Source: Gammaproteobacteria bacterium (GTDB lineage: Bacteria; Pseudomonadota; Gammaproteobacteria; Ga0077536). Taken from it: a stretch of DNA of 64,000 nucleotides. The notes beneath the pieces were generated by a model. The model had not been told where the DNA came from. It did not search any database and saw only the letters and a list, made by a program, of their open reading frames with translations. The DNA lies in NCBI GenBank assembly GCA_965278995.1, contig OZ257136.1, forward strand, positions 2,940,553 to 3,004,552. Direction: 5' to 3'. The stretch's first letter is position 1, and every line of letters starts with the position of its first letter. Shown in pieces: positions 334-49,571 of this stretch. Both the position numbers and the translations under genes were made by a program.

Positions 334-460
334 GAACGCGGCTTGCCCCCGCAGGCCACGCCGGCTGGCGTCAGGTCGCGCCCGGCGCGTAAGCGTCACG
401 CGCCGGGCCGGCGAGTCCAGCACTGGGCGCTGCATGTGCTGCAGCACCAATGCAGAAAAG

Positions 461-1374: not shown

Positions 1375-1707
1375 ATGGGTATGGGGAACGTTGGCACGAC
1401 CAAAATTTTCGAGAACGACAAGATGATCGTGTGGGAATTCGTCCTCGATCCGGGCGATACCACACCGCTGCACACCCACCAGCACGACTACATGTTCTAT
1501 GTGCTGGACGGCGCGCCGCTCGATGTCTTTGATGCTGCCGGCGGATCGCTCGGCCAGCTCGACGCGCGCAGCGGCGCGGTCTTCGCGCTGACCGTCGATG
1601 GCGACGACCTGGTCACGGCTGATGGCAAGCATCGTGTGCCGGTCACTCACACGGCGCGCAATGCCGGCACCACGCGCTATCGCGAGATCCTGGTCGAAAC
1701 GAAATGA
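1375..1707 (+). CDS. cupin domain protein
   Basis: Met at 1375 is preceded by AAGGAG 10 nt upstream. Contains the His-rich cupin motif (GDTTPLHTHQHDYMFYVLDG). Confidence 0.6.
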   Translation: MGMGNVGTTKIFENDKMIVWEFVLDPGDTTPLHTHQHDYMFYVLDGAPLDVFDAAGGSLGQLDARSGAVFALTVDGDDLVTADGKHRVPVTHTARNAGTTRYREILVETK

Positions 1708-1729
1708 TTCGGGCGGACCGAGCCCGCCC

Positions 1730-2200
1730 ATGAACATGATGACGGACGACGCCGACGCATTGGCCCGCACCGCCGGCGCCGCCATGTATGCACGTGACCG
1801 CGCCTCGCAGGAACTCGGCATTGAACTCCTGGAAGTTCGGGCCGGCTATGCCCGCATGACCATGACCGTGCAAGACTGGATGCTGCAGGGTCACGCGGTC
1901 TGCCATGGCGGCTATCTGTTCACGCTGGCCGATACGGCGATGGCCTTTGCCGCCAATTCACATAACGTCGCCCATCTCGCGCTGAACGCGAACATCGATT
2001 TTCTCCGCCCGGCCAATCTCGGTGAGACGCTGACGGCTGTCGCCGAGGAAGGCAATCGCACGCGGCGTACCGGCATGTACGACGTCAGCGTAGTCAACGA
2101 CAAAGGTCAGCAAGTGGCACATTTCCGCGGTCGCACGTTCGGCGTCGGCGGCAGCGTGATTGGCGAGGACGGCGGAGGCGGAGAAGAACATCGTGCTTGA
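1730..2200 (+). CDS. PaaI-type hotdog-fold thioesterase (hydroxyphenylacetyl-CoA thioesterase-like)
   Basis: ORF 1598..2200 from internal Met. Carries the HGG motif context (AVCHGGYLFTLADTAMAFAANS) and overall PaaI/4HBT family similarity. Confidence 0.7.
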   Translation: MNMMTDDADALARTAGAAMYARDRASQELGIELLEVRAGYARMTMTVQDWMLQGHAVCHGGYLFTLADTAMAFAANSHNVAHLALNANIDFLRPANLGETLTAVAEEGNRTRRTGMYDVSVVNDKGQQVAHFRGRTFGVGGSVIGEDGGGGEEHRA

Positions 2201-2256
2201 ATTCGTCCGCTAGGTAATCGAATAAATCGTTTCGAATTTGCCTCTCAAGCTCACGG

Positions 2257-2363
2257 CTGGTGGGTGACAGGCTTGATCCGGGACCGTGCGCCGCAGGACG
2301 CGGCGCCCGAGCATACAAGGATGTACTGGCTGCGTGTCCCGGAACAAGCCTGTCAGCCACCAG
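2257..2363. repeat. Large imperfect inverted repeat (27-nt arms, 25/27 complementary, 53-nt spacer containing a nested GCGCCGC/GCGGCGC hairpin)
   Basis: Arms are CTGGTGGGTGACAGGCTTGATCCGGGA (2257-2283) and TCCCGGAACAAGCCTGTCAGCCACCAG (2337-2363). The inner hairpin spans 2288-2294 and 2300-2306. Confidence 0.6.
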
Positions 2364-2480
2364 TCCGTCCGAACTAAAGCGAATTCGGAACCTATTAAAG
2401 AATCTCTGAATAAGTCCATCCTGGACTTCTACTCGCCTCATCCCTGAGGCTCGCCCTTGCAGGGCTGCACTGCGTGCGTT

Positions 2481-2543
2481 CAAAATCGCTCCAGGCGATT
2501 TTGCCAGAGTACGGAAAGGGAAAAATGCGATTTTTCCCTTTCC
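2481..2543. repeat. Two adjacent perfect palindromic stem-loops
   Basis: CAAAATCG-ctccagg-CGATTTTG spans 2481-2503. GGAAAGGGAAAAA-tgcga-TTTTTCCCTTTCC spans 2513-2543 and is followed by TTCATTTTG. Confidence 0.5.
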
Positions 2544-2576
2544 TTCATTTTGAATGGTCTACGCCCATCGAAAATC

Positions 2577-2624
2577 GCGGCACATCCCTGTGCCGCAGGA
2601 AGCTCTGCCTTTTGCAGAGCTTCC
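2577..2624 (-). terminator. Tandem intrinsic-terminator-like hairpins immediately downstream of the nhaP2 stop codon
   Basis: An 11-bp perfect stem GGAAGCTCTGC/GCAGAGCTTCC (2598-2624) starts 15 nt after the minus-strand stop. A second hairpin, GCGGCACA-tccc-TGTGCCGC (2577-2596), is followed on the minus strand by GAUUUUCGAU. Confidence 0.5.
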
Positions 2625-2639
2625 TTAACTCAGGAGCCC

Positions 2640-4370
2640 TTACTGCTCCGGCATCAATTTCAGACCGACAGTCGCAATCCGCCCATTCTCGATATCGCGT
2701 GTCACGATGCGCACCGAACCGACCATCACGCCATCGCCGGCAACGGCGCGACGTCCAAGGCGTCGTTCAAGCAAGGTGCCGATAGTCCCAGCGGCTTCTT
2801 CGGCATTGAGTTCGAGCCCATAGACGGCAGCCAGATCGGCTGCAGCAGCGTCGGCCCGCACCGTGAACTCGCCGTAGAAATCGCGTGCAGCGGATTCGCC
2901 TTTGAGCGCGCTGCCAGAAAAAAACGCCGAGAGCATTTCGGATTGGCCGGGGGCCAACAGCAACCACACCAGATCGTCGGCAGCGAGCGCCTGCTCCGGC
3001 GACGGCATCAACGGTGTGCCACCACGGGCGACGAACAGACAGCGTAGACCCGGCAGTTCGTCGAGCGGCAATGGTTCCACGCTGGCCCAGCCGACGGCTG
3101 GCGCGCCCGGTTCGACGCGGAACGTGACGAGTTCGTGGCCGCGCGAGCCGATCCACACTTCGCTGCGATCGACCGGCTCGGCACGATGGGGAACGATCAT
3201 ACCGAGCAGGCGCGCAGCGAGCGGCAGCGTCATGCCCTGCAGCAGCAGCGAGACCAGCACGACGGTGAAGGTGACGTCGAAGATCAGATGCGCATCCGGC
3301 AGGCCCGCCACGACCGGGAAGATTGCCAGCACGATGGGTACAGCACCGCGCAAACCGACCCACGAGACAAACACGGTTTCGCGCCAGCGAAATCGCATGA
3401 ATACCAGTGAGGTGAGCACGGCGAGCGGTCGTGCGATCAGCATCAGGAAGAACGCGACAGCGAGCGCATGGCCCATGGAATCGAACAGTCGCGCTGGCGT
3501 GACGAGCAGCCCGAGCAGGACGAACATGATCGCCTGCGCCAGCCAGGCGAGACCGTCCAGCACGGTCATGACGTGCTCAGTGGCGTGGCTGCGTCGATTG
3601 CCGATGACGAGTCCGGCGATGTAGACAGCGAGAAATCCGCTGCCACCGATGGCATTCGCTGCGCCGAAGATGGCGAGTCCGGCTGAGGCGATCAGCAGGG
3701 CATAAAGTCCTTCCGCCAATCGGAGGCGAGCCAGCGCCAGCGCCAGTATGTAACCACCGCCGGCGCCCGCTGCGGTGCCGATACCGAGTTCGAGCACGAG
3801 TTCGAGTGCGAGATGGGCCCAGCTGAAACTGGCCGGATCGCGCAGTACACCGATGAACGCGATGACCAGAAAAATGGCCATCGGATCGTTCGTACCCGAC
3901 TCAATCTCGAGCGTCGCGCGTACGCGCTCGTTGATGCGCAGACGACTGTTGCGCAACAGGGAGAACACAGCCGCCGCGTCGGTCGAGGCGACGATTGCAC
4001 CGAGCAGCAAACCGAGACGCCAATCGATGCCGAGCAGCCAGGTCGCAAAACCGCCGAGCAACCCGGCCGAAACCAGCACACCCCAACTCGCCAGCATGGC
4101 AGCCGGTTTGAGGGCGACACGAAACGTCGAGATCTGGGTGCGCAGGCCACCGTCGAGCAGGATCAGCGCAAGCGCAATATTGCCGATGCGGAACGCCAGT
4201 TCGAAATCGCCGAAAGGGATTCCGCCGGGACCATTCTCACCGGCCAGCATGCCGGCCAGCAGAAAGATGATCAGCAAGGGCAGGCCGATGCGATTCGACG
4301 CTACGCTGACCAGCACGCTGAATGCAATCAGTCCGCCGGCGGCGAGCAGATAGAGATCGAGACTGTCCAT
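2640..4370 (-). CDS. nhaP2: K+/H+ antiporter NhaP2 (CPA1 family, C-terminal TrkA-C regulatory domain)
   Basis: 576 aa with multiple TM helices (MDSLDLYLLAAGGLIAFSVLVSVASNRIGLPLLIIFLLAGMLAGENGPGG...). Length and N-terminus match NhaP2/CvrA; the C-terminal region is soluble. Confidence 0.85.
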   Translation of the reverse strand: MDSLDLYLLAAGGLIAFSVLVSVASNRIGLPLLIIFLLAGMLAGENGPGGIPFGDFELAFRIGNIALALILLDGGLRTQISTFRVALKPAAMLASWGVLVSAGLLGGFATWLLGIDWRLGLLLGAIVASTDAAAVFSLLRNSRLRINERVRATLEIESGTNDPMAIFLVIAFIGVLRDPASFSWAHLALELVLELGIGTAAGAGGGYILALALARLRLAEGLYALLIASAGLAIFGAANAIGGSGFLAVYIAGLVIGNRRSHATEHVMTVLDGLAWLAQAIMFVLLGLLVTPARLFDSMGHALAVAFFLMLIARPLAVLTSLVFMRFRWRETVFVSWVGLRGAVPIVLAIFPVVAGLPDAHLIFDVTFTVVLVSLLLQGMTLPLAARLLGMIVPHRAEPVDRSEVWIGSRGHELVTFRVEPGAPAVGWASVEPLPLDELPGLRCLFVARGGTPLMPSPEQALAADDLVWLLLAPGQSEMLSAFFSGSALKGESAARDFYGEFTVRADAAAADLAAVYGLELNAEEAAGTIGTLLERRLGRRAVAGDGVMVGSVRIVTRDIENGRIATVGLKLMPEQ

Positions 4371-4511: not shown

Positions 4512-5582
4512 ATGACGCAAGCGATCGCGATAGTGCCGCCCTCCGCGGTCTCGCCCGAATGGTTGACAGCCGCGCTGCAGGCCCGCGGCATCGATGCGCG
4601 CGTGCGTAGTGTCACGACCGAGACGGTCGGCACCGGCCAGCTCGGCGAAACGCGACGTTTCCGCCTCGATTACGCCGGCGCCGTGCCGGCTGACGCGCCG
4701 CGCACGCTGGTTGGCAAGTTTCCTTCCGACAACGAGGTCGCGGCAACCAGCGGCCGCGAACTGGGACTGTATCGCTGCGAGGTCATGTTCTATCGCGAAC
4801 TCGCTCATCGCGCGGTCATCCGCACGCCGGCGGTCTACGTCGCCGAACTCGATCAGGCAAATAATTTCGTGCTGCTGTTGGAAGATCTCGCGCCGGCTGT
4901 GCAGGGCGATCACATGCGCGGTTGTTCTGTGGAGAATGCCCGCAAAGCACTCGACGAAGCTGCCATGCTGCACGCGGCGTTCTGGAATGACGCCGAACTG
5001 GCGAGCCAGGATTGGGTGTACATCCCGGCCGGTGCACAGGGCTTCTATACCACCGAACTGATGGAGAGCTGCTGGGCGCATTTTGAAAAAACCTACGCCC
5101 ATCGCATGGACCCGGACGTCATCAAGGTCTGCGCCAAATATATCCAGCATCATGCCGCCTGGAACGCGCCGCGAGCGGCGCCGAAAACCTATTCGCACAA
5201 TGATTTTCGCGTCGACAACATGCTGTTCGGCGGCGAACGCATCGCGGTCGTCGACTGGCAAACCAGCAACTATCTCGGCACCGGCATGGACCCCGCGTAT
5301 TTTCTCGGCAGTGCATTTGATCGCGAAACCCGTCGTCGGCACGAAGGGGAACTGCTGCACGGCTACCATGACGCCCTGATCCGTCGTGGCGTGACGGACT
5401 ACAGTTTCGATCACCTGATGGCAGATTATCGTCACTACAGCTTCGCTGTGCTTGCCGTCGCCATTGCCGCAACGGTCATCGTCAAGCAAACCGAGCGCGG
5501 CGATCACCTGTTCATGAAGATGGTCACCGATGGCGCCTATCAGGCGCTCGACAACGACGCGCTCGATGTCCTGCCGTCGTAA
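4512..5582 (+). CDS. phosphotransferase enzyme family protein (APH/choline-kinase-like fold)
   Basis: Internal Met of ORF 4440..5582, preceded by a GGAAGGAA Shine-Dalgarno. Carries the Brenner motif HNDFRVDNMLF plus a downstream DWQ, as in aminoglycoside/ecdysteroid-kinase-like phosphotransferases. Confidence 0.65.
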   Translation: MTQAIAIVPPSAVSPEWLTAALQARGIDARVRSVTTETVGTGQLGETRRFRLDYAGAVPADAPRTLVGKFPSDNEVAATSGRELGLYRCEVMFYRELAHRAVIRTPAVYVAELDQANNFVLLLEDLAPAVQGDHMRGCSVENARKALDEAAMLHAAFWNDAELASQDWVYIPAGAQGFYTTELMESCWAHFEKTYAHRMDPDVIKVCAKYIQHHAAWNAPRAAPKTYSHNDFRVDNMLFGGERIAVVDWQTSNYLGTGMDPAYFLGSAFDRETRRRHEGELLHGYHDALIRRGVTDYSFDHLMADYRHYSFAVLAVAIAATVIVKQTERGDHLFMKMVTDGAYQALDNDALDVLPS

Positions 5583-5593
5583 AGGAGTCGACG

Positions 5594-6274
5594 ATGCGTC
5601 TGGCCAAACCCCATCTCGATCTCGGCCTGTTCACCAATGATATCGCCCTGCAGCGGCGCTTTTGGGGTGAAACCGCGCGACTGCGGCTCGACCACGAACT
5701 GCCTGTCGGACCAGGCTGGGTGCAGCATCGCTACGACGCGCACGACTCGGTCATCAAGGTCAATCTGCGCGACGACCCACTGCCGGCCTTGCCGCCTACC
5801 GGCTTTACCGGCCTCACTATCGCCGCTACCGGTCCAGCGTGGAGCGGGCAACATCCGGGCGGTGACCGCGTGCGCCTCGTGGCACCCGGGACCGACGGCG
5901 TCGTCGGTATCGGCGTCACTGTCAGTACCCCGGATCCGGCGCGCATGATGGCGTTCTATGTCGACGCGATGGAATTCGAGCCGGTTGGCCCGCGGACCGC
6001 GCGCTGCGGCGACAGCCTGCTGTTCGTCGAGCACGGCGCTGGCGGATCAGTGACCGAGGATTTCATCGGTCCGAATTTTCGCTATCTGACCGTACAGATC
6101 TACGACGCCGACGAAGCCTGTTCAGCGATTGTCGCGCGCGGTGGCAGGCTCGGCCGGGCGCCGGTCACCCTCGGTCAGGTTGCACGTTTCGGCTTTGTCT
6201 GCGACCCGGACGGCAACTGGATCGAAATCTCGGCGCGCGCGTCGTTGACCGGGATCATCCCGCGACCGGATTGA
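5594..6274 (+). CDS. VOC (glyoxalase/bleomycin-resistance/dioxygenase) family protein
   Basis: AAGGAG Shine-Dalgarno upstream. The C-terminal FVCDPDGNWIEI resembles the glyoxalase-fold signature. Confidence 0.55.
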   Translation: MRLAKPHLDLGLFTNDIALQRRFWGETARLRLDHELPVGPGWVQHRYDAHDSVIKVNLRDDPLPALPPTGFTGLTIAATGPAWSGQHPGGDRVRLVAPGTDGVVGIGVTVSTPDPARMMAFYVDAMEFEPVGPRTARCGDSLLFVEHGAGGSVTEDFIGPNFRYLTVQIYDADEACSAIVARGGRLGRAPVTLGQVARFGFVCDPDGNWIEISARASLTGIIPRPD

Positions 6275-28434: not shown

Positions 28435-30144
28435 ATGTCTAACCGGACAACTCCAGACTTGCGTACTTTCCACGGCACTGAAAATACGGAAGAGAGAAAC
28501 GTTACCTGCGGGATGCCGGACTGGCTGACGACGTCGGCAACGCAACTGGGGGAAGCGGATGCTACGAACGTTTGGAACACGTCCGCGGACGCGAGCTGTT
28601 CTCCGTTTGCCTCTACGACGCTGAGTGCCCAATTATCCTCAAATGTTCGCCTGCAGGATCTCGGCCTCCTTGGACGAGGCGGGTTTGGCACTGTCCGCGC
28701 AACGATGGACAGGGCACTACTACGTACGGTCGCAACAAAGATACTCGATCAGACTGAGCAACCTTTGGCGCAAGCTGCTCTCCGATTTGTCGAGGAAGCC
28801 CAGATCACAGCTCAACTCGAACATCCGAATATCGTACCGGTCCATGATATCGGAATCGACGAACACGGCAGATATTTCTTCACTATGAAAATAGTGAATG
28901 GCAAGACGCTCCAACATTACCTGTCTGAAACATCCGGCTCAGACGACCATCGAACCTTACATCACAAGCTGCAGATTCTGGTCAAGGTATGCGACGCCAT
29001 TGGATTTGCGCATAGCCAAGGCGTAGTCCACGCAGACCTCAAGCCGGACAACATCATGGTAGGAAGTTTTGGCCAGGTCTATGTGATGGACTGGGGTATC
29101 GCTCAACTCCTGGATTGCGGCCGGCCTTCGGATGGCGCTGGCCTCGGTGACTTCGATCGAGTCCGTTTAGAGAGCGATTCCGACCGAGTAATTCGCAGCA
29201 AAGGCAGGATTGTCGGAACATTACCCTATATGTCGCCCGAACAGGCATTGGGAATGACCGGCCACATCGATCAGCGCACCGACGTATTCGCGTTGGGCGG
29301 CATCTTGTACCAGATGCTCACAGGCCATCCACCCTACACCTGCAACACGACCGAAGAAATACTCGCTGCGGCGCGCGCAGGTGTGATAAACCCTCCTGCA
29401 GTTTCTGCACCGGGCAAGGTCGTTCTTCCCGGCCTGGCCCACATCGCGATGAAGGCACTGAGCGCCCATCCTGCTGAGCGCTACCAGACGGTGCCCGAAA
29501 TGCAGGAGGAAATCGAGCGATTCCTGCGTGGCTGCGATTGGTTCGATACCCGAACATACCTGCCCGGCGACATCATCATGCGGGAAGGTGACGATTCGCA
29601 CGAGGCATACATCATCACGTCTGGTTTGTGCGAAGCGTTCAAGACTGGCGCCGACACCAACGTAACGTTACGTACTATGGGTCCGGGAGATGTTTTCGGC
29701 GAGACGGGCATCTTCACCAGTCAACCACGGTCGGCAAGTGTACGGGCACTTGCACCCCTGAGCGTGCTGGTTGCGACGCGTGAGTCCTTGGAGAAAGAAC
29801 TCGGTTCTGGCAGTTCGTTGAGCATGTTCGTCAAAGCGCTGGGAGAGCGCTTCAGAGAACGCGATGAGCAGCTTATGCATACCTATTTGGCGACCGATCC
29901 CGTACAAATAGCATGCGCCATCTTAAAATTTCTTTGCTTCAACGGCGAAAACAGAGATAACGCGAGAGAAGGTTCGTGGAGCGTCTGCCTTGATTGCCTG
30001 ACAGCAGAATTCGGCCTGCGGGAAAACGAACTGATGCCGCTGGTAGAGCGCAGCCCGCACATCAGGGTCGATAAGGTGAGTGATACGGTATCTGTCAGCA
30101 ATGAAACTCGCTCTGCGGCTAATCAAATCATGAGGCGTGGATAG
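28435..30144 (+). CDS. Ser/Thr protein kinase fused to a C-terminal cyclic-nucleotide-binding (CNB) domain
   Basis: Gly loop LGRGGFGTV, VATK lysine, catalytic loop HADLKPDN (non-RD), DWG in place of DFG, and SPE in place of APE. C-terminal CNB carries FGETGIF and an RSASVRA phosphate-binding cassette. The true start may be downstream (Met27). Confidence 0.8.
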   Translation: MSNRTTPDLRTFHGTENTEERNVTCGMPDWLTTSATQLGEADATNVWNTSADASCSPFASTTLSAQLSSNVRLQDLGLLGRGGFGTVRATMDRALLRTVATKILDQTEQPLAQAALRFVEEAQITAQLEHPNIVPVHDIGIDEHGRYFFTMKIVNGKTLQHYLSETSGSDDHRTLHHKLQILVKVCDAIGFAHSQGVVHADLKPDNIMVGSFGQVYVMDWGIAQLLDCGRPSDGAGLGDFDRVRLESDSDRVIRSKGRIVGTLPYMSPEQALGMTGHIDQRTDVFALGGILYQMLTGHPPYTCNTTEEILAAARAGVINPPAVSAPGKVVLPGLAHIAMKALSAHPAERYQTVPEMQEEIERFLRGCDWFDTRTYLPGDIIMREGDDSHEAYIITSGLCEAFKTGADTNVTLRTMGPGDVFGETGIFTSQPRSASVRALAPLSVLVATRESLEKELGSGSSLSMFVKALGERFRERDEQLMHTYLATDPVQIACAILKFLCFNGENRDNAREGSWSVCLDCLTAEFGLRENELMPLVERSPHIRVDKVSDTVSVSNETRSAANQIMRRG

Positions 30145-30279
30145 TCACATCAGCAAACGCGTATTGGCCCCAACGAGCGATCGTCAGTCGTTACGCGCCC
30201 ACGGCAATTTGAATTGATGACCGTCGCCTTCAACTGACACACGGCGAATACCGGCCGCATTTATTCGGGAGCTGAGTAA

Positions 30280-32163
30280 ATGGCAAAGTATCATCCGCTC
30301 TTCGGAATTGTGCTCGTTTTCGCCGTTATCGGACTGACACGACTGGTGGGCGGATTCGAGCGCGCCGAGCTCGCTGCTTATGATCTGGGCATGAGTGTCC
30401 GCGCGTCGGCTGCTCCCGACGGTCGTTTTCTCCTGATCGACGAATCCGAAGACGACCTTCAGCGTTTCGGGCACCCGTTACCCGATGCGATACTTGCCAG
30501 AATCATCGAAAAACTGGCAATGCTGGGCCCCAGTGTTGTCGGCATCGACAAGTTTCGCGATATTTCCGTGCCACCTGGTGGCGATGACCTCACGGCTGCT
30601 CTCAAGGCACACGCCAACGTATTCTGGATCTATCAGTTCGGCGGACCTGGCATGCATCGTATCGAACCGCCTGCGCCGCTGCTCGACAGCGAACGTATCG
30701 GGTTCAATGACATGGTGGCAGATACCGGTGGCGTCGTTCGTCGCGGATTGCTTTACCTCGATGACGGCAGCGCACCACAGGCGTCATTCCCACTGGTATT
30801 AGCACTCGCTTACTTGAGAAAAGCAGGTATCCAGCCGGTACCCGACGCCGACGACCCGAGTGTCATGAAACTTGGTCACAGCAGTATCCGACCGTTCGCC
30901 AGCAATGACGGTAGTTACGTCTTGGCCGACGCTGCGGGCTATCAGATCTTGCTGGATTTTATGAGTGGTCCTGCACGGTTCCCCCACGTTACGCTTGGCG
31001 AACTGCTCGATGATCGCGTATCTCAGGAACTCGTACGTGATCGTATCGTCATCCTCGGGGCAAGCGCCGAAAGCCTCAAAGACTTTTTTATTACCCCATT
31101 CAGCGGACATGACGCGCGCACCATGTTCGGCAGCGAGCTTCATGCACATGCCACTTCTCAGCTGATCCGCCTGGCGCTTGGCGAACCGGCTGGCGTGACG
31201 ACGCTGCCAGACTGGGTCGACTACAGCCTCCTTGCGCTGTGCTGTCTGGCAGCCTTACCAGCCTGGCTGCGGCCAACTGCTTCTCGTCTCCTACTGCAGG
31301 TCGTAATCGGTAGCGGAGGACTGATCCTCGTCTGGTATCGGCTGGCGACCTCAACCATCTGGTTTCCGATTGTGCCAATGCTCGCCGGGTTTCTGCTGAC
31401 GACGGCGATCCTCGCCGCAATGCGTGCGATTCGCGAGGCGCGAGAGCGCGCCGCGCTGATGTCGATTTTTTCCCGCCACGTCTCTCCCGAAGTCGCTCGA
31501 GAGCTGTGGGAACGTCGAACAGAATTTCTCGATGGTTACAATCTGCGTCCGCGGTTGCTCTCTGCAACAGTGTTGTTTGCCGATATCCGTGGATACTCGA
31601 CTATCGCTGAGACGCTCGAGCCCCTGCAGACCGCACTCTGGCTTAACCAGGTCATGAGCCTGCTGGCTGAGACAATCATGCAATACAAAGGGGTGATTCG
31701 GCAGTACGCGGGTGACGCCGTAATGGCCGTGTATGGAGCACCGATTCCGAGCATTACGCCGGCCGCGCAGGCACAGGATGCTTGCAATGCCGTAATCTGC
31801 GCGCAACAAATTCGAACTCGCTTGGCCGACCTGAACAATTCCCTCCACTCGCAAGGTGCTCCGGACGCGCGCTTGCGCATCGGTATTCACACTGGCTCGA
31901 TGGTGACCTGCAGTATCGGCAGTTCCGAACGAGGTGAATATGCCGTTGTCGGTGACGCCGTCAACGTTGCGGCTCGTCTGCAGACCCTGCCACTCAATGA
32001 AACGGGTATGGATAGTGAATGTCGGATCCTGATCAGTCGGGAAACATGGAGTCTGCTTGCCGATATTGTTGATTGTGACGACGTCGGTACCTTTGAAGTA
32101 AAAGGGCGACGCGACCCGGTAGGAGTGTTTCGCGTCAGTGATCCTCAACGGCGGCTGGAATGA
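30280..32163 (+). CDS. CHASE2 sensor domain - class III adenylate/guanylate cyclase
   Basis: N-terminal TM helix, then a periplasmic CHASE2-like region. Further TM helices, then a cyclase domain (ATVLFADIRGYSTIAE...YAGDAVMAVYGAP...GIHTGSMVTCSIGS). Confidence 0.85.
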   Translation: MAKYHPLFGIVLVFAVIGLTRLVGGFERAELAAYDLGMSVRASAAPDGRFLLIDESEDDLQRFGHPLPDAILARIIEKLAMLGPSVVGIDKFRDISVPPGGDDLTAALKAHANVFWIYQFGGPGMHRIEPPAPLLDSERIGFNDMVADTGGVVRRGLLYLDDGSAPQASFPLVLALAYLRKAGIQPVPDADDPSVMKLGHSSIRPFASNDGSYVLADAAGYQILLDFMSGPARFPHVTLGELLDDRVSQELVRDRIVILGASAESLKDFFITPFSGHDARTMFGSELHAHATSQLIRLALGEPAGVTTLPDWVDYSLLALCCLAALPAWLRPTASRLLLQVVIGSGGLILVWYRLATSTIWFPIVPMLAGFLLTTAILAAMRAIREARERAALMSIFSRHVSPEVARELWERRTEFLDGYNLRPRLLSATVLFADIRGYSTIAETLEPLQTALWLNQVMSLLAETIMQYKGVIRQYAGDAVMAVYGAPIPSITPAAQAQDACNAVICAQQIRTRLADLNNSLHSQGAPDARLRIGIHTGSMVTCSIGSSERGEYAVVGDAVNVAARLQTLPLNETGMDSECRILISRETWSLLADIVDCDDVGTFEVKGRRDPVGVFRVSDPQRRLE

Positions 32164-32187
32164 TCGGAAAGCCTATAGCAATGGCTG

Positions 32188-32934
32188 CTATGGCTTCGCC
32201 ACGCGATCGTCGGTTACTTCCGGCAATCCAACCTGATTCAACAACTCGCGTCGGAAGTCGCGAAGTTCCGTGTCTTCTGCGTTTTCCTCGATCAATCGAT
32301 TCAGATACGCAATAGCGTCGTACCAGTAACCAGCTTGAGCGTAGATCCGAGGCTGCTCACGCGGATCTGCCGATGCGCTCCTGCGACGTAATGAGTCCGA
32401 CGGGGGAACATACGCGATCGTTCCGCTCGCAACGACATCTTGCGAACGCTGATTCGAATTGAGGATCAGTGCAACGGACCACTGGTACTCGACACCTTCT
32501 TTCAGCGTGACGCCATGAGTACCAAGGTCGAGCGCCTGGAAGCCGCTCGCCACAGGCTTGCCGAGGGTAAGTTCCAGCAGAGGTTCGATGCTCTGTTCGT
32601 CGAGTAAAGTCAATTCGATCTTCGCCGGAACAGGTCGATTTACATACCAGTAGACCACGGGCTGTGCCAGGGACGACAAACCGGTATCCTCGGGCACCAG
32701 CACGCGAAGGATGGTATCGCCGTCCCCGCCCCCGCGAGTGCCCCCGCCAACCCTGCGCGCAGGTGCCCCGGTCGAAGGCGGTACATACCCACCCCTTTCC
32801 GACTTTACTTCGGGCGGTGGTGTTTTGATGCTTTCGATGGCAGTTGAATGCTGTATGACGGTTATGCCCACGAGCATGGCTACCACTAACGAAAAAGCGC
32901 GTATGGAAAAATATTTCATTTCAACCACCCCCAC
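32188..32934 (-). CDS. DUF928 domain secreted protein
   Basis: Signal peptide (MKYFSIRAFSLVVAMLVGITVIQHSTA) and a Gly-rich linker; resembles the DUF928 family. Start may be Met6 (32919). Confidence 0.55.
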   Translation of the reverse strand: MGVVEMKYFSIRAFSLVVAMLVGITVIQHSTAIESIKTPPPEVKSERGGYVPPSTGAPARRVGGGTRGGGDGDTILRVLVPEDTGLSSLAQPVVYWYVNRPVPAKIELTLLDEQSIEPLLELTLGKPVASGFQALDLGTHGVTLKEGVEYQWSVALILNSNQRSQDVVASGTIAYVPPSDSLRRRSASADPREQPRIYAQAGYWYDAIAYLNRLIEENAEDTELRDFRRELLNQVGLPEVTDDRVAKP

Positions 32935-32974
32935 TCAACGCTATCGATTTTGCCGCCGCTTGCGCAGCTACCCG

Positions 32975-34318
32975 CTAATTGGCCTGCGGGCTCACCGCAT
33001 ATAATCGCCATTCACCCGGCACGCCTTTCAGCGTCTGCAGACCGCGGTCCACGAAGCGAATCTCAGAACCAGCAACAAGATCTTTTACCGTACTCGAGAC
33101 CAGCACTTCGCCCGCTCCTGCCTTGCCGACGACCCGCGCACCGATATGCACGGCGATGCCGCGAATGGCGCGGTCGGCGAGTTCGATCTCTCCGGTGTGC
33201 AAACCTACGCGGATCTCGATTCCAAGCGTATGAACGGATTCACGAATGGCACAAGCACAGCGAATCGCGCGTGCAGGTCCGTCGAAAGTAGCCAGCAGAC
33301 CGTCGCCCATGAACTCGATCTCCTGCCCTCTGTGTCTGATGAGTTCTCGCCGTACGATGTCGTGGTGAGTTTCCAGAAGTGCGCGCCAGGCATGATCGCC
33401 GAGAGCGACGGCACGCTCGGTCGAACCGACAATGTCAGTGAACAGCACCGTCGCAAGAACGCGGTCGCTATCCAGCACTGGTCGTGCGCCGGTCAGGAAC
33501 TCCTCTATCTCACCGAGCATCGGCTCCGTCGCCCCAATGTGGAATAGATGATCCGTGCCCCCAAGTTCGACGAATTTTGCACCCGGGACATGCCGCGCGA
33601 GATAGTGTCCGTGGCTGACATCAATAATCCGATTGCCGGCGCGGTGCATGACGAGTGTCGGCACTCTGATTGCTGGTAAAACGTCGCGGAGATCTTTTTC
33701 GAAATCCGATCGCACAACGGCTCGCACCATGCTCGGTGAGAGCGAGAGTCTTTCATAGCGGGCGTACCAGCGACGGAAGCGTTCATCGCGCGCGACGCTC
33801 GGCGCAAATACATCGAGGTTCACACCGGTGCCCCAACGCGATTCCACCTCGTCCAGCGAACGCATTACGTGATCCATCGAAAAATCCTCGGGATGCTCAT
33901 CGTCACCAAACTGACGCGCCGAGGAATCGACCAGGATCAGCGCAGACGTCTGCGCCGGATAGGTGGCAGCGAAGAGCATGGCCATCTGACCGCCATGCGA
34001 ATGCCCGAGCAGCGCCGCGCGGGTCGAACCCGCCGCGCCCATGACTGTGCGGACGTCGTCGCTCCACTGCTCCAGAGTCGGTAACGCTGCAAGCGGCACC
34101 GGATCGGAGACACCAGCACCGCGTTTGTCGAAACACAACAGGCGACTGAATGTCGCCAGGCGATTGAGAAAATGCGCAATCGTTGGCTCTTCCCACATGG
34201 CGTCGATATTGGTCGCCCACCACGGAATGAAGACGAGGTCCTGCGGACCCTCGCCGATCACCTGGTAGGCGACACTGCCTTCCCTGCTCCTCGCGTAATG
34301 TGTTTCAGGGTCTGCCAT
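32975..34318 (-). CDS. alpha/beta-hydrolase - class III adenylate/guanylate cyclase fusion (LipJ-like architecture)
   Basis: N-terminal hydrolase with GHSHGG nucleophile elbow. C-terminal cyclase (ATVLFTDIVGSTERA...FMGDGLLATFDGP...GLHTGEIE). Confidence 0.8.
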   Translation of the reverse strand: MADPETHYARSREGSVAYQVIGEGPQDLVFIPWWATNIDAMWEEPTIAHFLNRLATFSRLLCFDKRGAGVSDPVPLAALPTLEQWSDDVRTVMGAAGSTRAALLGHSHGGQMAMLFAATYPAQTSALILVDSSARQFGDDEHPEDFSMDHVMRSLDEVESRWGTGVNLDVFAPSVARDERFRRWYARYERLSLSPSMVRAVVRSDFEKDLRDVLPAIRVPTLVMHRAGNRIIDVSHGHYLARHVPGAKFVELGGTDHLFHIGATEPMLGEIEEFLTGARPVLDSDRVLATVLFTDIVGSTERAVALGDHAWRALLETHHDIVRRELIRHRGQEIEFMGDGLLATFDGPARAIRCACAIRESVHTLGIEIRVGLHTGEIELADRAIRGIAVHIGARVVGKAGAGEVLVSSTVKDLVAGSEIRFVDRGLQTLKGVPGEWRLYAVSPQAN

Positions 34319-46727: not shown

Positions 46728-49571
46728 ATGAGCAGTGTCCCGCCAGCACCCGCTGATCCCACCCTGACGACCGAGAAGCGATTTCTTGCGCTCAATCGCG
46801 ACCGACTGGCTCGCGTCCATGCCAACCTCACCCCTCGGCAGCGCGATTTTCTCGACCTCCTGCCACTGCTGTTTCACCTGAATCATCCCCTGCTGCCCGG
46901 CTATGTGGCGAAAGAAACTGTCATCGGCATCAACGACTACGCCCCCAACCAGCGCGCATTGCGGGCCGCTCGCCGAGTCTGCCGTTCGTTCGAGTACGAC
47001 CGACGCTCGGCGCCGCGCTACGCGGTGCGTGGGCTGTACCTGATGGGCAGTCCGGGCACGATAGCGTATTCGCGCGAAAGCGATCTCGATTTGTGGTTGC
47101 TGCACGATCCGGGGCTCAGCGCAGAAGCCGTTGAAGAACTGGCCGAGAAAGCGCGTCGGATTGAAATCTTCGCCGGCGAAGTGGGACTCGAAGTGCATTT
47201 CTTCGTATTCGACGCCGAACGTTTCCGTCACGGCGAGACATTGTCTCTGTCGGCCGAATCGAGCGGCAGCTCACAGCACTATCTGCTGCTCGACGAGTTC
47301 TATCGTTCAGGTCTGTTGATCGCAGGCCTGCCGCCCCTATGGTGGCGCGTACCGGCAAGTCACGATACGGCTTACGAGGGCTATCTGCAGGGCGTTACCG
47401 AAAGGCGCGCGTTCGATCGCCGCGACTATATCGATTTCGGCGGTCTGCGCAGCATTCCCGTCGAAGAGTTTTTCGGTGCGGCGGTATGGCAGCTCTACAA
47501 GAGCATCGAGTCGCCGTACAAATCTGTCCTGAAACTGCTCTTGATGGAATCTTACGCGGCCGAATATCCGAACATCGGCCTGCTCAGTCACCGCTTCAAG
47601 CAGAACGTCGAATCGAGTACCGTCAACCTGAACGCCTTCGACCCGTACATACTCATGTACACCAAGGTTGAAGAGTATCTGCTCACACGTAACGACCCAG
47701 TACGCCTCGACGTTCTGCGGCGCAGTTTCTACCTGAAAACCAGCCTGCGCCTGAGCTCGCGGGAGAGCGCACTCGGTGGCGACTGGCGGCGCGAGGCGCT
47801 GGCCGCAATGGTCGAAGACTGGCACTGGACGCCAGCCCAGGTGGTGAGACTCGATCAACGCGACGACTGGCGGATCGACACCGCGATCGAAGAGCGGCGC
47901 GATCTGATCAATACGCTGAAAGACAGCTATGCCGCACTGTCGCAGTTTGCCCGCCAGCATGCCACCGATCAGAAGATTACCGAACATGATCTGAACGTAC
48001 TCGGTCGAAAACTCTACGCAGCATTCGAGAAGAAGCCGGCCAAGATCGAGGTGCTGACGCGCGGCATCTGCATCAATCCGGCCGAAGCAAGTCTCTCGTT
48101 GCACGAGATCCGGACCACCGACAACGCCACTGTTTGGCTGTTGTTCGCGGGGCTGGTGAAGCCGACCGAAGTCGCTTTCCGACGCCCCATGAAACGCTCG
48201 GCGGCGGCAGCGGAAATTCTCCTGTGGTGTCAGTTGAACCGGCTGTCGACGCCGGCCACGACCTGGCATGTATTTACCGCGGGCAGCGAATTGAACGCGC
48301 TTGAGATCAAGCGTATCGGCGAAGCATTCGATTCCGGCATCGGCCAACCCGACGCGCCATCGGTACTCGATCAACGCCCGCGTATCATGCGCCTGCTGCT
48401 GCTGGTCAATATCGGGGTCAATGCGTTTTCCGGCGCGGTCGGTGCAGGGAGTGTCCTCACCACCGATCATACCGATGCGTTCCGCTTCGGCGGTCGGCGC
48501 ATCAATCTGCTGAAAAGCGTTGACCTGATCTTCGCCAACAGCTGGGGCGAGACATTCGCGTTCCGTTACGAGGGCGATACCTCAGTACTCGACGCGCTCG
48601 CCGAATGTGTGCAGTGGGCACCATTCGACGGAAGCGCGCGCGATCTGCCGCCAGTCGAAGTCCGCTGCTTCACCTCCGACTATGCCAACCAGATAGCCCG
48701 GCGCGTCAGTACGAGTTTCCTTCAGGCGGGGCGTTTCGTCGCCCGCTATGCGACTGCTTCGAATCCGCATTTCGTGCTTGAGATCGACGATCGTCTGCAG
48801 CATCTGCGCGTTGAAGACGGCAAAGCGCGGGTCGACAGCCATGCCAGCCACGCGCTGCTGTTGCGGGCGCTTGGTGATGCCAGCAGCAACCGATTCAATC
48901 CGGTTCGCTTCGATCGCGGCTGCACCCGGGTCGGGGTGCTGCCACGCATCTATGCACAGAACCGTCCCGGTCGTGTCCAGATCTATGCGCAGCAGCGCGG
49001 CGAACGTGCCGATATCTATATCCTCGACGAACGCGGCCTGTTGCTGGTTCAGCGACAGGAGTGTCATGACATGAAGCAACTGCTGCATCACTACCGCCGG
49101 TTTCTCGACAATGCGCTGCCGCGCTGTACCGGGCTCGCGCGCGCATTCCCTGGCGGGCTTGTGATCGAAACCCATGAAGTCCTGCTTCAGGAGGCCGGCG
49201 TGCAATTCAAATTGCATGCCGGCGAGCCATCGTTTGGAAGACCGTATCTCTCGCTCCAGGTGCTTGCCGACGCTGATGCACAAGGTCGCCAGCAGTTCAC
49301 CATCAATGCCAATCATCGCGAGTTCTCGACCTGGGAGCATGGTGGCTCGCTGTTTCAGCAGGTCGCCGAGTATGTCTTCGCTCAGCGCGCTGGAACTGAG
49401 TCTTATCCCATCTATATCACCGACCTCGACCTCTCGACGCGTTTCCGGATTGCTGTCGGAGTGCGCACGCTACGGCCACTCGATCTGCTGAGTTACAAGA
49501 AGCGGATCGAGTACCAGTTGACTCGCGCGCTGAGTCGCGAAGGAGCGGTGCCGATAGCGCTTGCATCCTGA
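46728..49571 (+). CDS. cyaA: class I adenylate cyclase
   Basis: 947 aa. N-terminal region RQRDFLDLLPLLFHLNHPLLPGYV and the catalytic core resemble enterobacterial CyaA. Confidence 0.85.
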   Translation: MSSVPPAPADPTLTTEKRFLALNRDRLARVHANLTPRQRDFLDLLPLLFHLNHPLLPGYVAKETVIGINDYAPNQRALRAARRVCRSFEYDRRSAPRYAVRGLYLMGSPGTIAYSRESDLDLWLLHDPGLSAEAVEELAEKARRIEIFAGEVGLEVHFFVFDAERFRHGETLSLSAESSGSSQHYLLLDEFYRSGLLIAGLPPLWWRVPASHDTAYEGYLQGVTERRAFDRRDYIDFGGLRSIPVEEFFGAAVWQLYKSIESPYKSVLKLLLMESYAAEYPNIGLLSHRFKQNVESSTVNLNAFDPYILMYTKVEEYLLTRNDPVRLDVLRRSFYLKTSLRLSSRESALGGDWRREALAAMVEDWHWTPAQVVRLDQRDDWRIDTAIEERRDLINTLKDSYAALSQFARQHATDQKITEHDLNVLGRKLYAAFEKKPAKIEVLTRGICINPAEASLSLHEIRTTDNATVWLLFAGLVKPTEVAFRRPMKRSAAAAEILLWCQLNRLSTPATTWHVFTAGSELNALEIKRIGEAFDSGIGQPDAPSVLDQRPRIMRLLLLVNIGVNAFSGAVGAGSVLTTDHTDAFRFGGRRINLLKSVDLIFANSWGETFAFRYEGDTSVLDALAECVQWAPFDGSARDLPPVEVRCFTSDYANQIARRVSTSFLQAGRFVARYATASNPHFVLEIDDRLQHLRVEDGKARVDSHASHALLLRALGDASSNRFNPVRFDRGCTRVGVLPRIYAQNRPGRVQIYAQQRGERADIYILDERGLLLVQRQECHDMKQLLHHYRRFLDNALPRCTGLARAFPGGLVIETHEVLLQEAGVQFKLHAGEPSFGRPYLSLQVLADADAQGRQQFTINANHREFSTWEHGGSLFQQVAEYVFAQRAGTESYPIYITDLDLSTRFRIAVGVRTLRPLDLLSYKKRIEYQLTRALSREGAVPIALAS

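Follow-up and report, generated by a model that had tools for sequence, protein, structure and literature searches.

Insertions of about 70 bp within ERIC/IRU repeats were reportedly the subject of notes by Sharp (Mol Microbiol 24:1314) and by Cromie, Collins and Leach (Mol Microbiol 24:1311) in 1997, both cited in PMC3696847. The YPAL element (RU-2) is ~168 bp long, has internal inverted repeats, is not AT-rich, makes target duplications of variable length, uses dyad symmetries as targets and is co-transcribed with upstream genes (PMC2229807, section 11); its target-site duplications measure 3 to 26 bp and insertion is at or next to the dyad symmetries. The family is also the subject of De Gregorio et al. 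2006 (J Bacteriol 188:7876), and the sequence of Y. pestis RU-2/YPAL is printed in Delihas 2007 (PMC2759123, Table 1b). Here we analyse a stretch of 64,000 nt, referred to as the window, from an uncultured gammaproteobacterium of the Ga0077536 lineage (assembly GCA_965278995.1, contig OZ257136.1, positions 2,940,553 to 3,004,552), in which the convergent spacer at 2201-2639 (439 nt), between a thioesterase gene (+) and nhaP2 (-), is dense in hairpins. We consider it likely, with a probability of about 75%, that small mobile DNA elements, non-coding and able to form hairpins, landed in the terminator region of the two convergent genes and make up the spacer as a nest.

From left to right, the nest would consist of a YPAL/RU-2-like palindrome (2229-2391), a solo hairpin (2412-2428) and a 74-nt module of four hairpins (2430-2503), followed by the genes' own putative terminators (2513-2543 on the + strand, and 2577-2596 with 2597-2625 on the - strand). 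Alignments indicate that both elements are homologous to repeat families of other Gammaproteobacteria, with stems that covary and loop motifs that are conserved. This is a known kind of palindromic genomic clutter, found here outside the enteric bacteria in which it was first described.

A YPAL/RU-2-like palindrome

The element at 2229-2391 is 163 nt long and 61% GC (0.607, the same value as the whole window), and is read on the + strand, which is the strand showing GGA in the apical loops. A large inverted repeat had been recognized here in a reading made from the sequence alone (hereafter the sequence-only reading), and it is present as arms of 28 nt (2257-2284/2336-2363), 93% complementary, with a nested GC hairpin at 2288-2306. 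Outer pairing (2229-2241/2379-2391) extends the palindrome, while its conserved apex occupies 2276-2345. Apical hairpin 1 (2288-2306, GCGCCGC-AGGAC-GCGGCGC) has a GGA with an unpaired probability of 1.0; its stem covaries among homologues, four different stems carrying the same GGA loop. Apical hairpin 2 (2314-2325, UACA-AGGA-UGUA) presents a second GGA 23 nt past the first, and TACAnGGAnGTA is conserved in the Yersinia, Pantoea and Nitrococcus copies.

The first lead to this family came from a BLAST search of window 2200-2410 against the loci fetched for comparison, in which the apex (2279-2341) matched a Nitrococcus metagenome-assembled genome (MAG; locus L060) with E = 2.8e-6. The Nitrococcus element has the same design as that of the window, with wholly different arms. 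The apex order is that of YPAL/RU-2, namely a GC hairpin with an AGGA-type loop, then CGAGC, TACAnGGAnGTA and GCGT; in Y. pestis RU-2 the same layout reads as a GC hairpin with an AAGGAU loop, CUCGAGC, CUACAUGGAUGUA and ACGGCGU. Identity to the window apex is 74% in Nitrococcus, 68% in Pantoea (L133) and 63% in Y. pestis RU-2 (alignments A2 and A4), and the invariant columns of these alignments are concentrated in the apex. The stem that closes the apex is GGGAC/GUCCC in the window and Nitrococcus versus UAAAG/CUUUA in Pantoea and Yersinia, with pairing retained.

A covariance model of the apex (R2) scored the window element at 79.6 bits (E = 2.5e-22) and found no second copy in the 64 kb. In the fetched loci it gave 14 significant copies, one being L060, which is among the training sequences of R2, and the other 13 lying in Pantoea and Enterobacter loci. 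These copies are typically a few hundred nt from a copy of the four-hairpin module; such nests are therefore common. One spacer of Pantoea anthophila (L133, 5100-5740) holds three YPAL-like elements, one inverted and one module-bearing, and is a direct analogue of the window nest. In Nitrococcus, a 570-nt divergent spacer 5' of a metE-like open reading frame (ORF; region 3176-3748 of L060) contains a module copy and the YPAL-like element, whose GGA loops lie on the strand that is sense for metE, showing that the elements are not confined to 3' ends. The same locus has a cobalamin riboswitch at 2076-2215 on the - strand (38 bits).

The element of the window thus agrees with YPAL/RU-2 in size (163 nt against ~165-168), in having long internal inverted repeats round a two-hairpin apex, in not being AT-rich and in its position, which is intergenic, downstream of a gene and beside other dyad symmetries. 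It differs in that its arms are unrelated in sequence to the Yersinia arms, pairing alone being kept, and in its host, a 61% GC gammaproteobacterium far from the Enterobacterales. It adjoins other hairpins in a terminator spacer; no duplication is identifiable at this site, and the empty site of the relative is too diverged for alignment. The arm pattern TGGTGGNTGACAGGCTTGNTCC had no match in the genomes of 185,579 species (one genome each, the source locus not among them), and its two matches in metagenomes were chance ones, in unrelated low-GC contigs sharing the 22-mer alone. There was no insertion sequence (IS) match on plasmids or phages.

Of the Rfam families, Ysr224 (RF02770; gathering score 70) gives sub-threshold matches throughout: 43.8 bits (E = 1.5e-8) for a canonical Pantoea YPAL, 38 bits for L060 and 17.7 bits for the window element. 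The strand modelled by Ysr224 is the complement of the one with the GGA loops; the family is evidently the transcript of a YPAL copy. TwoAYGGAY (RF01731) resembles the YPAL apex in having two hairpins with GGA loops, and its model has no match in the window. In Klebsiella indica (L023) two TwoAYGGAY matches (3090-3158 and 3875-3943) exceed the gathering score, at 56.7 bits; the locus also has a module copy (2151-2234), at a distance of ~900-1700 nt.

A four-hairpin module in many genomes

The second element, at 2430-2503, came to light as a marginal BLAST match (E ~1e-4) to unannotated spots on Pantoea megaplasmids, which have the same four hairpins with paired changes; it is multi-copy in Pantoea. 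The 74-nt module, with boundaries taken from BLAST, is up to 85% identical to Ectothiorhodospira copies. Its parts are H2 (2435-2450, loop TCCC), H3 (2453-2465), H4 (2467-2477), a GTTC linker and H5 (2481-2503, loop TCCAG). The window copy has every trait of the family: its four hairpins come in the fixed order, the linker is the invariant GTTC, H2 has CATCCCTG as its loop, and H5 has a stem of the AAAA...TTTT kind.

Searching with a degenerate pattern built from the invariant core located the module at no fewer than 119 loci of other genomes, that is, at least 119. Hosts include Pantoea, Klebsiella, Kluyvera, Citrobacter, Brenneria, Dickeya, Pectobacterium and Salmonella arizonae, as well as Ectothiorhodospira, Thiohalophilus, Nitrococcus, Salinimonas and many gammaproteobacterial MAGs, Chromatiales and Thiotrichales among them. 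K. indica and P. agglomerans NBRC 102470 have several copies per genome, and contig ends are a frequent position. Head-to-tail arrays occur in Candidatus Pantoea gossypiicola (L021, 1-330; at least four units with a 78-nt period) and in a MAG (L063, 6869-7129; two to three units with a 72-nt period). The spacer had no match in phages or in 5,426 E. coli genomes, and the module pattern found no viral contigs. As far as our search of the literature reached, no description of the wide range of this module, which takes in YPAL loops, tRNA fragments, introns and MAGs, was found.

Structure statistics were obtained from an alignment of 64 sequences (A3). With the four-hairpin model 95.1% of cells are paired, against 30-46% when the partners are slid, and two-sided changes number 214, compared with 61 after shuffling, with compensatory changes at 13 of the 25 pairs. 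In the window copy none of the 25 pairs is broken. The H5 loop, which lay outside the search pattern, has TCC in 57 of 64 copies, while the loops of H3 and H4 vary freely. Among 1564 cells there are 18 G·U and 29 A·C; as G·U is no commoner than A·C, the helices are Watson-Crick on both strands and carry no RNA strand signal. A covariance model of the module (R1) matched the window copy over its full length (85.4 bits, E = 1.1e-18) and matched nothing else in the 64 kb.

For 63 copies both flanking ORFs could be assigned, by a crude ORF caller, giving 42 convergent, 3 divergent and 18 tandem arrangements; in the tandem gene pairs the two orientations of the module are equally frequent (9:9). 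On the - strand of window 2418-2512 there is a weak Rfam match to the Aggregatibacter small RNA (sRNA) AaHKsRNA22 (25 bits, E = 0.027), with the hairpin order of the module, and the Pasteurellaceae may hold a related element.

Insertion of the module into hairpin loops

Several genomes show where the module inserts. In P. anthophila (L133) two paralogous YPAL copies, A and B, differ only by the module, which interrupts the loop of apical hairpin 1 of copy A right after CCGCCGCATGGA. In two MAGs (L121 and L086) the arrangement GGGTTCGA|module|ATCCCACC...CCGCCA is a tRNA-Ser 3' fragment split in the T-loop with no duplication, and in these tRNA-fragment cases comparison with the intact tRNA reveals both junctions. 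Tandem units follow the tRNA-Ser genes in both (L121, 260-680; L086, 700-1120), each unit comprising an inverted copy of the variable arm and T-arm and a module-split 3' fragment; their appearance is that of att-site remnants that accreted and into which the module inserted afterwards.

In group II introns of Ectothiorhodospira and related MAGs the module forms a ~100-nt insertion relative to the Rfam D1D4-3 consensus. The intron of Ectothiorhodospira shaposhnikovii (L048, 5540-7066; matches to D1D4-1 and D1D4-3) carries it after model position 26 (UCUGAAGGA), and intron-borne modules are likewise present in L043, L057, L093, L094, L130 and L134. Apparently, the module spreads with the group II intron.

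In Citrobacter, Salmonella arizonae and Pectobacterium the interrupted sequence is what we take to be an ERIC/IRU repeat, with a fixed insertion site before CCTGCAACTCGAATTATTTAGAG. The copies in these three hosts are well-folding inserts of ~72-78 nt at a fixed internal ERIC site, and the module may be the ~70-bp insertion within ERIC of the 1997 notes. The module of the window differs in not being inside an ERIC.

Across the loop, tRNA, ERIC and intron contexts the insert starts with CAAAA and finishes with GAGTA(A/C/G). In the window the module is bracketed by CTCTG/CAGAG and adjoins the 7-bp hairpin AAGTCCA-TCC-TGGACTT (2412-2428), which abuts it and has the loop type (CCAGGAUGG on the - strand) of hairpins flanking the module in Pantoea composites; no intact host element can be reconstructed. 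Overall, sequence comparison indicates a strongly covarying 74-nt module whose insertion into hairpin loops is precise, the targets in many Gammaproteobacteria being other palindromes, tRNA fragments and introns.

Structure and gain of the spacer

Folding of the 441-nt region containing the spacer gives -212 kcal/mol on the + strand and -220 kcal/mol on the - strand, compared with -138 and -149 for dinucleotide shuffles (z ~ -11 for the fold of either strand). None of 100 shuffles was as stable, so the structure of the spacer is not due to chance. The spacer makes up 0.7% of the window and has 5 of the 46 perfect hairpins with a stem of at least 7 bp in a scripted list; the count becomes 6 of 47 when 2577-2596, which the script had omitted through an off-by-one overlap, is included. 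Of all perfect stems in the 64 kb, the longest and the second longest both lie in the spacer.

All features listed in the sequence-only reading were found within 1 nt of the coordinates given there, including four perfect hairpins at 2481-2503 (9 bp), 2513-2543 (14 bp), 2577-2596 (8 bp) and 2597-2625 (12 bp). There are at least six more, namely 2314-2325 (4 bp, AGGA loop), 2412-2428 (7 bp), 2435-2450 (6 bp), 2453-2465 (5 bp), 2467-2477 (4 bp) and the imperfect 2548-2574. That reading had left open a small structured RNA, a REP- or MITE-like (miniature inverted-repeat transposable element) repeat and protein-binding palindromes; the MITE-like alternative is supported for the big inverted repeat, as a YPAL/RU-2-like element, and for 2481-2503, as the last stem of the module. 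It had also placed the first three hairpins beyond simple termination, which is borne out for 2481-2503, whereas 2513-2543 is a predicted + strand terminator.

The ORFs that cover the spacer are probably artefacts, as had been suspected: the two that were tested have no Pfam match, no gene is called on a same-strain ENA contig, which is identical throughout the spacer, and the region is absent from a relative. Relatives with an NhaP2 87% identical to that of the window (L002-L004) share the order EcKL kinase, nhaP2 and convergent 4HBT gene, and the spacer of the closest syntenic relative measures 41 nt with a single 8-bp hairpin. It follows that ~400 nt were gained in the lineage of the window. 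In L002 a 239-aa alpha/beta-hydrolase gene (5119-5838) stands between the cupin and thioesterase genes and is missing at window 1707-1730, indicating that other insertions or deletions have taken place in the neighbourhood.

Mobile DNA and the alternatives

If the spacer is a nest of mobile elements, they would have arrived by transposition acting on DNA hairpins. The module may be moved by single-strand transposition with a trans-acting HUH/Y1-type enzyme (of the IS200/IS605 or RAYT-like kind), a proposal drawn from its anatomy only. Such an enzyme is favoured because the module has no terminal inverted repeats, makes no target duplication, has a hairpin at each end and inserts loop-specifically after 'GA'; the conserved TCC/GGA loops could be its recognition feature. 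Once inserted, the elements would be co-transcribed into 3' untranslated regions (UTRs), where the RNA hairpins could affect termination or mRNA stability.

This anatomy is shared with palindrome-associated transposable elements (PATEs) of the IS200/IS605 type and with REP/RAYT systems, which likewise have no terminal inverted repeats or target duplication and a hairpin at each end, insert by a short motif in single-stranded DNA, accumulate at gene 3' ends, form tandem arrays and have a covarying structure. The module differs from them in having four hairpins rather than one or two; it has neither a GTAG nor a CGTC tag and resembles no known class of REP in sequence, and no associated tnpA or RAYT gene was identified for it. 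The spacer also recalls the BIMEs of E. coli, which are mosaic pile-ups of different palindromic units in extragenic 3' regions; its unit sequences differ, with no match in the E. coli genomes searched.

Several observations weigh against a nest of mobile elements. Each element occurs once in the 64-kb window, no transposase was found among the ten larger window proteins scanned, and we know of no mobilizing enzyme for either family. Neither a target-site duplication nor an exact junction can be reconstructed in the window, the spacer of the relative being too diverged for alignment. The homology of the palindrome is confined to ~60 nt of apex at 63-74% identity, its arms sharing no sequence with Yersinia or Pantoea arms. 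Conservation in the module is partly circular at CATCCCTG, CGCCC and GTTCAAAA, as the search pattern required all three. Finally, no homologues of the four hairpins within 2513-2625 were found in the fetched loci, and the assignment of terminators there is by consensus prediction only.

The main competitor is a structured regulatory RNA that shows GGA loops to a CsrA/RsmA-type protein, either as a sponge sRNA or as CsrA-responsive 3' UTRs, each in the sense of its own gene; we regard this as unlikely. GGA is fully unpaired in four - strand loops (2421, 2443, 2492 and 2587) and in two on the + strand (2296 and 2319), but for a sponge this means loops divided between strands, and no sigma-70-like promoter is present in 1900-2900. 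The CsrA consensus derived by SELEX (systematic evolution of ligands by exponential enrichment) is RUACARGGAUGU. Two GGA-loop sites, ACAGGGAUGU and AUACAAGGAUGU, which we take to match it, were counted for CsrA binding, as was the spacing of 23 nt between the YPAL GGA loops, which is akin to TwoAYGGAY, a family placed by Rfam in the Csr/Rsm clan. However, Rfam gave no Csr/Rsm family match at a useful score in the window, and tblastn found no csrA gene there. Each element of the window has its GGA loops on the strand that is sense for the nearest upstream gene, whereas elsewhere the module lies in either orientation relative to tandem flanking genes. Constancy of the GGA/TCC loops across homologues with variable stems would suit a protein-binding RNA, yet G·U is not enriched on either strand, and occurrence inside introns, tRNA fragments and other repeats gives the module the look of mobile DNA and not of a regulator gene. 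The lack of both a G·U preference and an orientation preference relative to genes argues for DNA-level mobile elements over a strand-specific RNA gene.

Formation in place, of ordinary terminators and mRNA-stabilizing stem-loops arising, for example, as template-switch palindromes with no mobile DNA involved, is very improbable. The location at convergent 3' ends, the two hairpins that fit the terminator consensus and the absence of a second copy in the 64 kb would all be expected, but the relative needs one hairpin in 41 nt. Moreover, the identity of 74 nt of the spacer to module copies from distant genera reaches 85%, R1 scores this stretch at 85 bits, and homology to YPAL copies is indicated for the apex of the big inverted repeat. 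An in-place origin appears to be largely refuted by these homologies.

It is equally hard to credit the module as a retro-mobile mini-element at the RNA level, which would enter the loops of structured RNAs (the tRNA T-loop, domains of introns, ERIC or YPAL hairpins in transcribed form) and return to DNA by reverse transcription, in connection with group II introns. The targets that could be reconstructed are all hairpin loops, in structured RNAs that are transcribed, but the stems are almost purely Watson-Crick, with G·U at 1.2% of cells and no commoner than A·C, which is atypical of helices selected as RNA. The reverse transcriptase of group II introns could serve the module in trans, and copies do lie within such introns, but these are explained equally well as passengers; most hosts (Pantoea, Klebsiella) showed no intron beside their copies.

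Other candidates were rejected: an integron attC (no GTTRRRY/RYYYAAC core sites on reading the sequence), a 6S-like RNA (no Rfam match), a bridge RNA or guide RNA for the tRNA-flank copies (which resolved as tRNA 3' fragments split in the T-loop), a group II intron fragment in the window (the consensus of the intron lacks the module, which is inserted DNA there, and the window has no intron signal), REP/BIME (no repeated unit of 20-40 nt and no E. coli match) and a classical DDE-derived MITE (arm pattern with no genome matches and chance metagenome matches only, and no plasmid or phage IS match).

On the reading of the spacer as a nest of mobile DNA, it should be masked in annotation as repeat or mobile DNA and not given ORFs or a new sRNA, and elements of the YPAL type extend beyond Yersinia and Erwinia. 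A more speculative proposal, to which we give rather low credence, is that a single super-family of elements targeting hairpin loops across the Gammaproteobacteria unites the module with the YPAL-type apex, with functional GGA/TCC loops that serve either for recognition by an HUH/Y1-like system inserting after 'GA' or as portable CsrA/RsmA-binding sites. If true, it would give a mechanism for the YPAL and ERIC insertions, unexplained since the 1990s, and in its CsrA/RsmA version the elements would bring the 3' UTRs next to them under Csr control. With R1 and R2, the questions of the enzyme and of the GGA/TCC loops become open to genome-wide testing.

Predicted terminators and remaining hairpins

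To the right of the module, the perfect 14-bp hairpin at 2513-2543 is followed by TTCATTTTGA and is the predicted intrinsic terminator of the thioesterase transcript (+ strand, terminator scan). Minimum free energy folds place an imperfect hairpin, TTTTGAATGG...CCATCGAAAA, at 2548-2574. The 8-bp hairpin at 2577-2596 (loop CATCCCTG on the + strand, CAGGGAUG on the - strand) is followed on the - strand by GAUUUUCGAU and is the predicted terminator of nhaP2. Termination of nhaP2 at the last two hairpins had been proposed in the sequence-only reading; the terminator scan flags 2597->2576 on the - strand, followed by ATTTTCGATG, an agreement by prediction only. Directly behind the nhaP2 stop codon, the hairpin search and the - strand fold give the perfect 12-bp hairpin of 2597-2625, which is probably part of the nhaP2 terminator or a stabilizer of the 3' end.

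The 8-mer CATCCCTG has only two sites in the 64 kb, at 2439 (H2 of the module) and at 2583. R2 aligns both 2577-2596, as a local match at model positions 13-32, and H2 to hairpin 1 of YPAL. From the shared loop and this alignment, 2577-2596 is of the same hairpin type as H2 and YPAL hairpin 1, and it is possibly a solo remnant.

Scans of the spacer for known RNAs and repeats were negative. No tRNA or tmRNA was found, no family reached its gathering score in an Rfam/Infernal scan of the whole window, and at E up to 10 the spacer had weak matches alone (AaHKsRNA22, a plant miRNA and Ysr224). The additional copies that a REP- or MITE-like element might have led one to expect did not appear: self-BLAST of the spacer found none in the 64-kb window, and no repeated unit was found in the spacer or the window, the hairpins differing from each other. 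As a contrast, window 379-408 has a perfect 11-bp GC-rich hairpin with the look of an ordinary terminator, 3' of a small Flp-pilin-like ORF (461-796, - strand; …MTEYIIIVALIAIAAIAIYGLFG…).

Flanking genes and neighbourhood

The identities proposed earlier for the flanking genes (PaaI-like on the + strand, nhaP2 on the - strand) agree with their Pfam domains. The left flank is a 4HBT/PaaI-type thioesterase gene (1730-2200, +; stop codon 2198-2200; 4HBT, E = 1.8e-15), and the right flank encodes an NhaP2-type K+/H+ antiporter (2640-4370, -; stop codon 2640-2642) with Na_H_Exchanger (E = 3.2e-55) and CorC_HlyC domains. Genes for RecQ, Mfd, ribosomal protein S1 and class-I adenylate cyclase identify the window as core chromosome. 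The homologues of this S1 with 85-92% identity all carry the name of uncultured Gammaproteobacteria. Cyclic-nucleotide signalling genes are clustered within 20 kb (window 28435-34318 and 46728-49571) and encode a Ser/Thr kinase with a cNMP-binding domain, a CHASE2-guanylate/adenylate cyclase, a hydrolase-cyclase fusion and the class-I adenylate cyclase.

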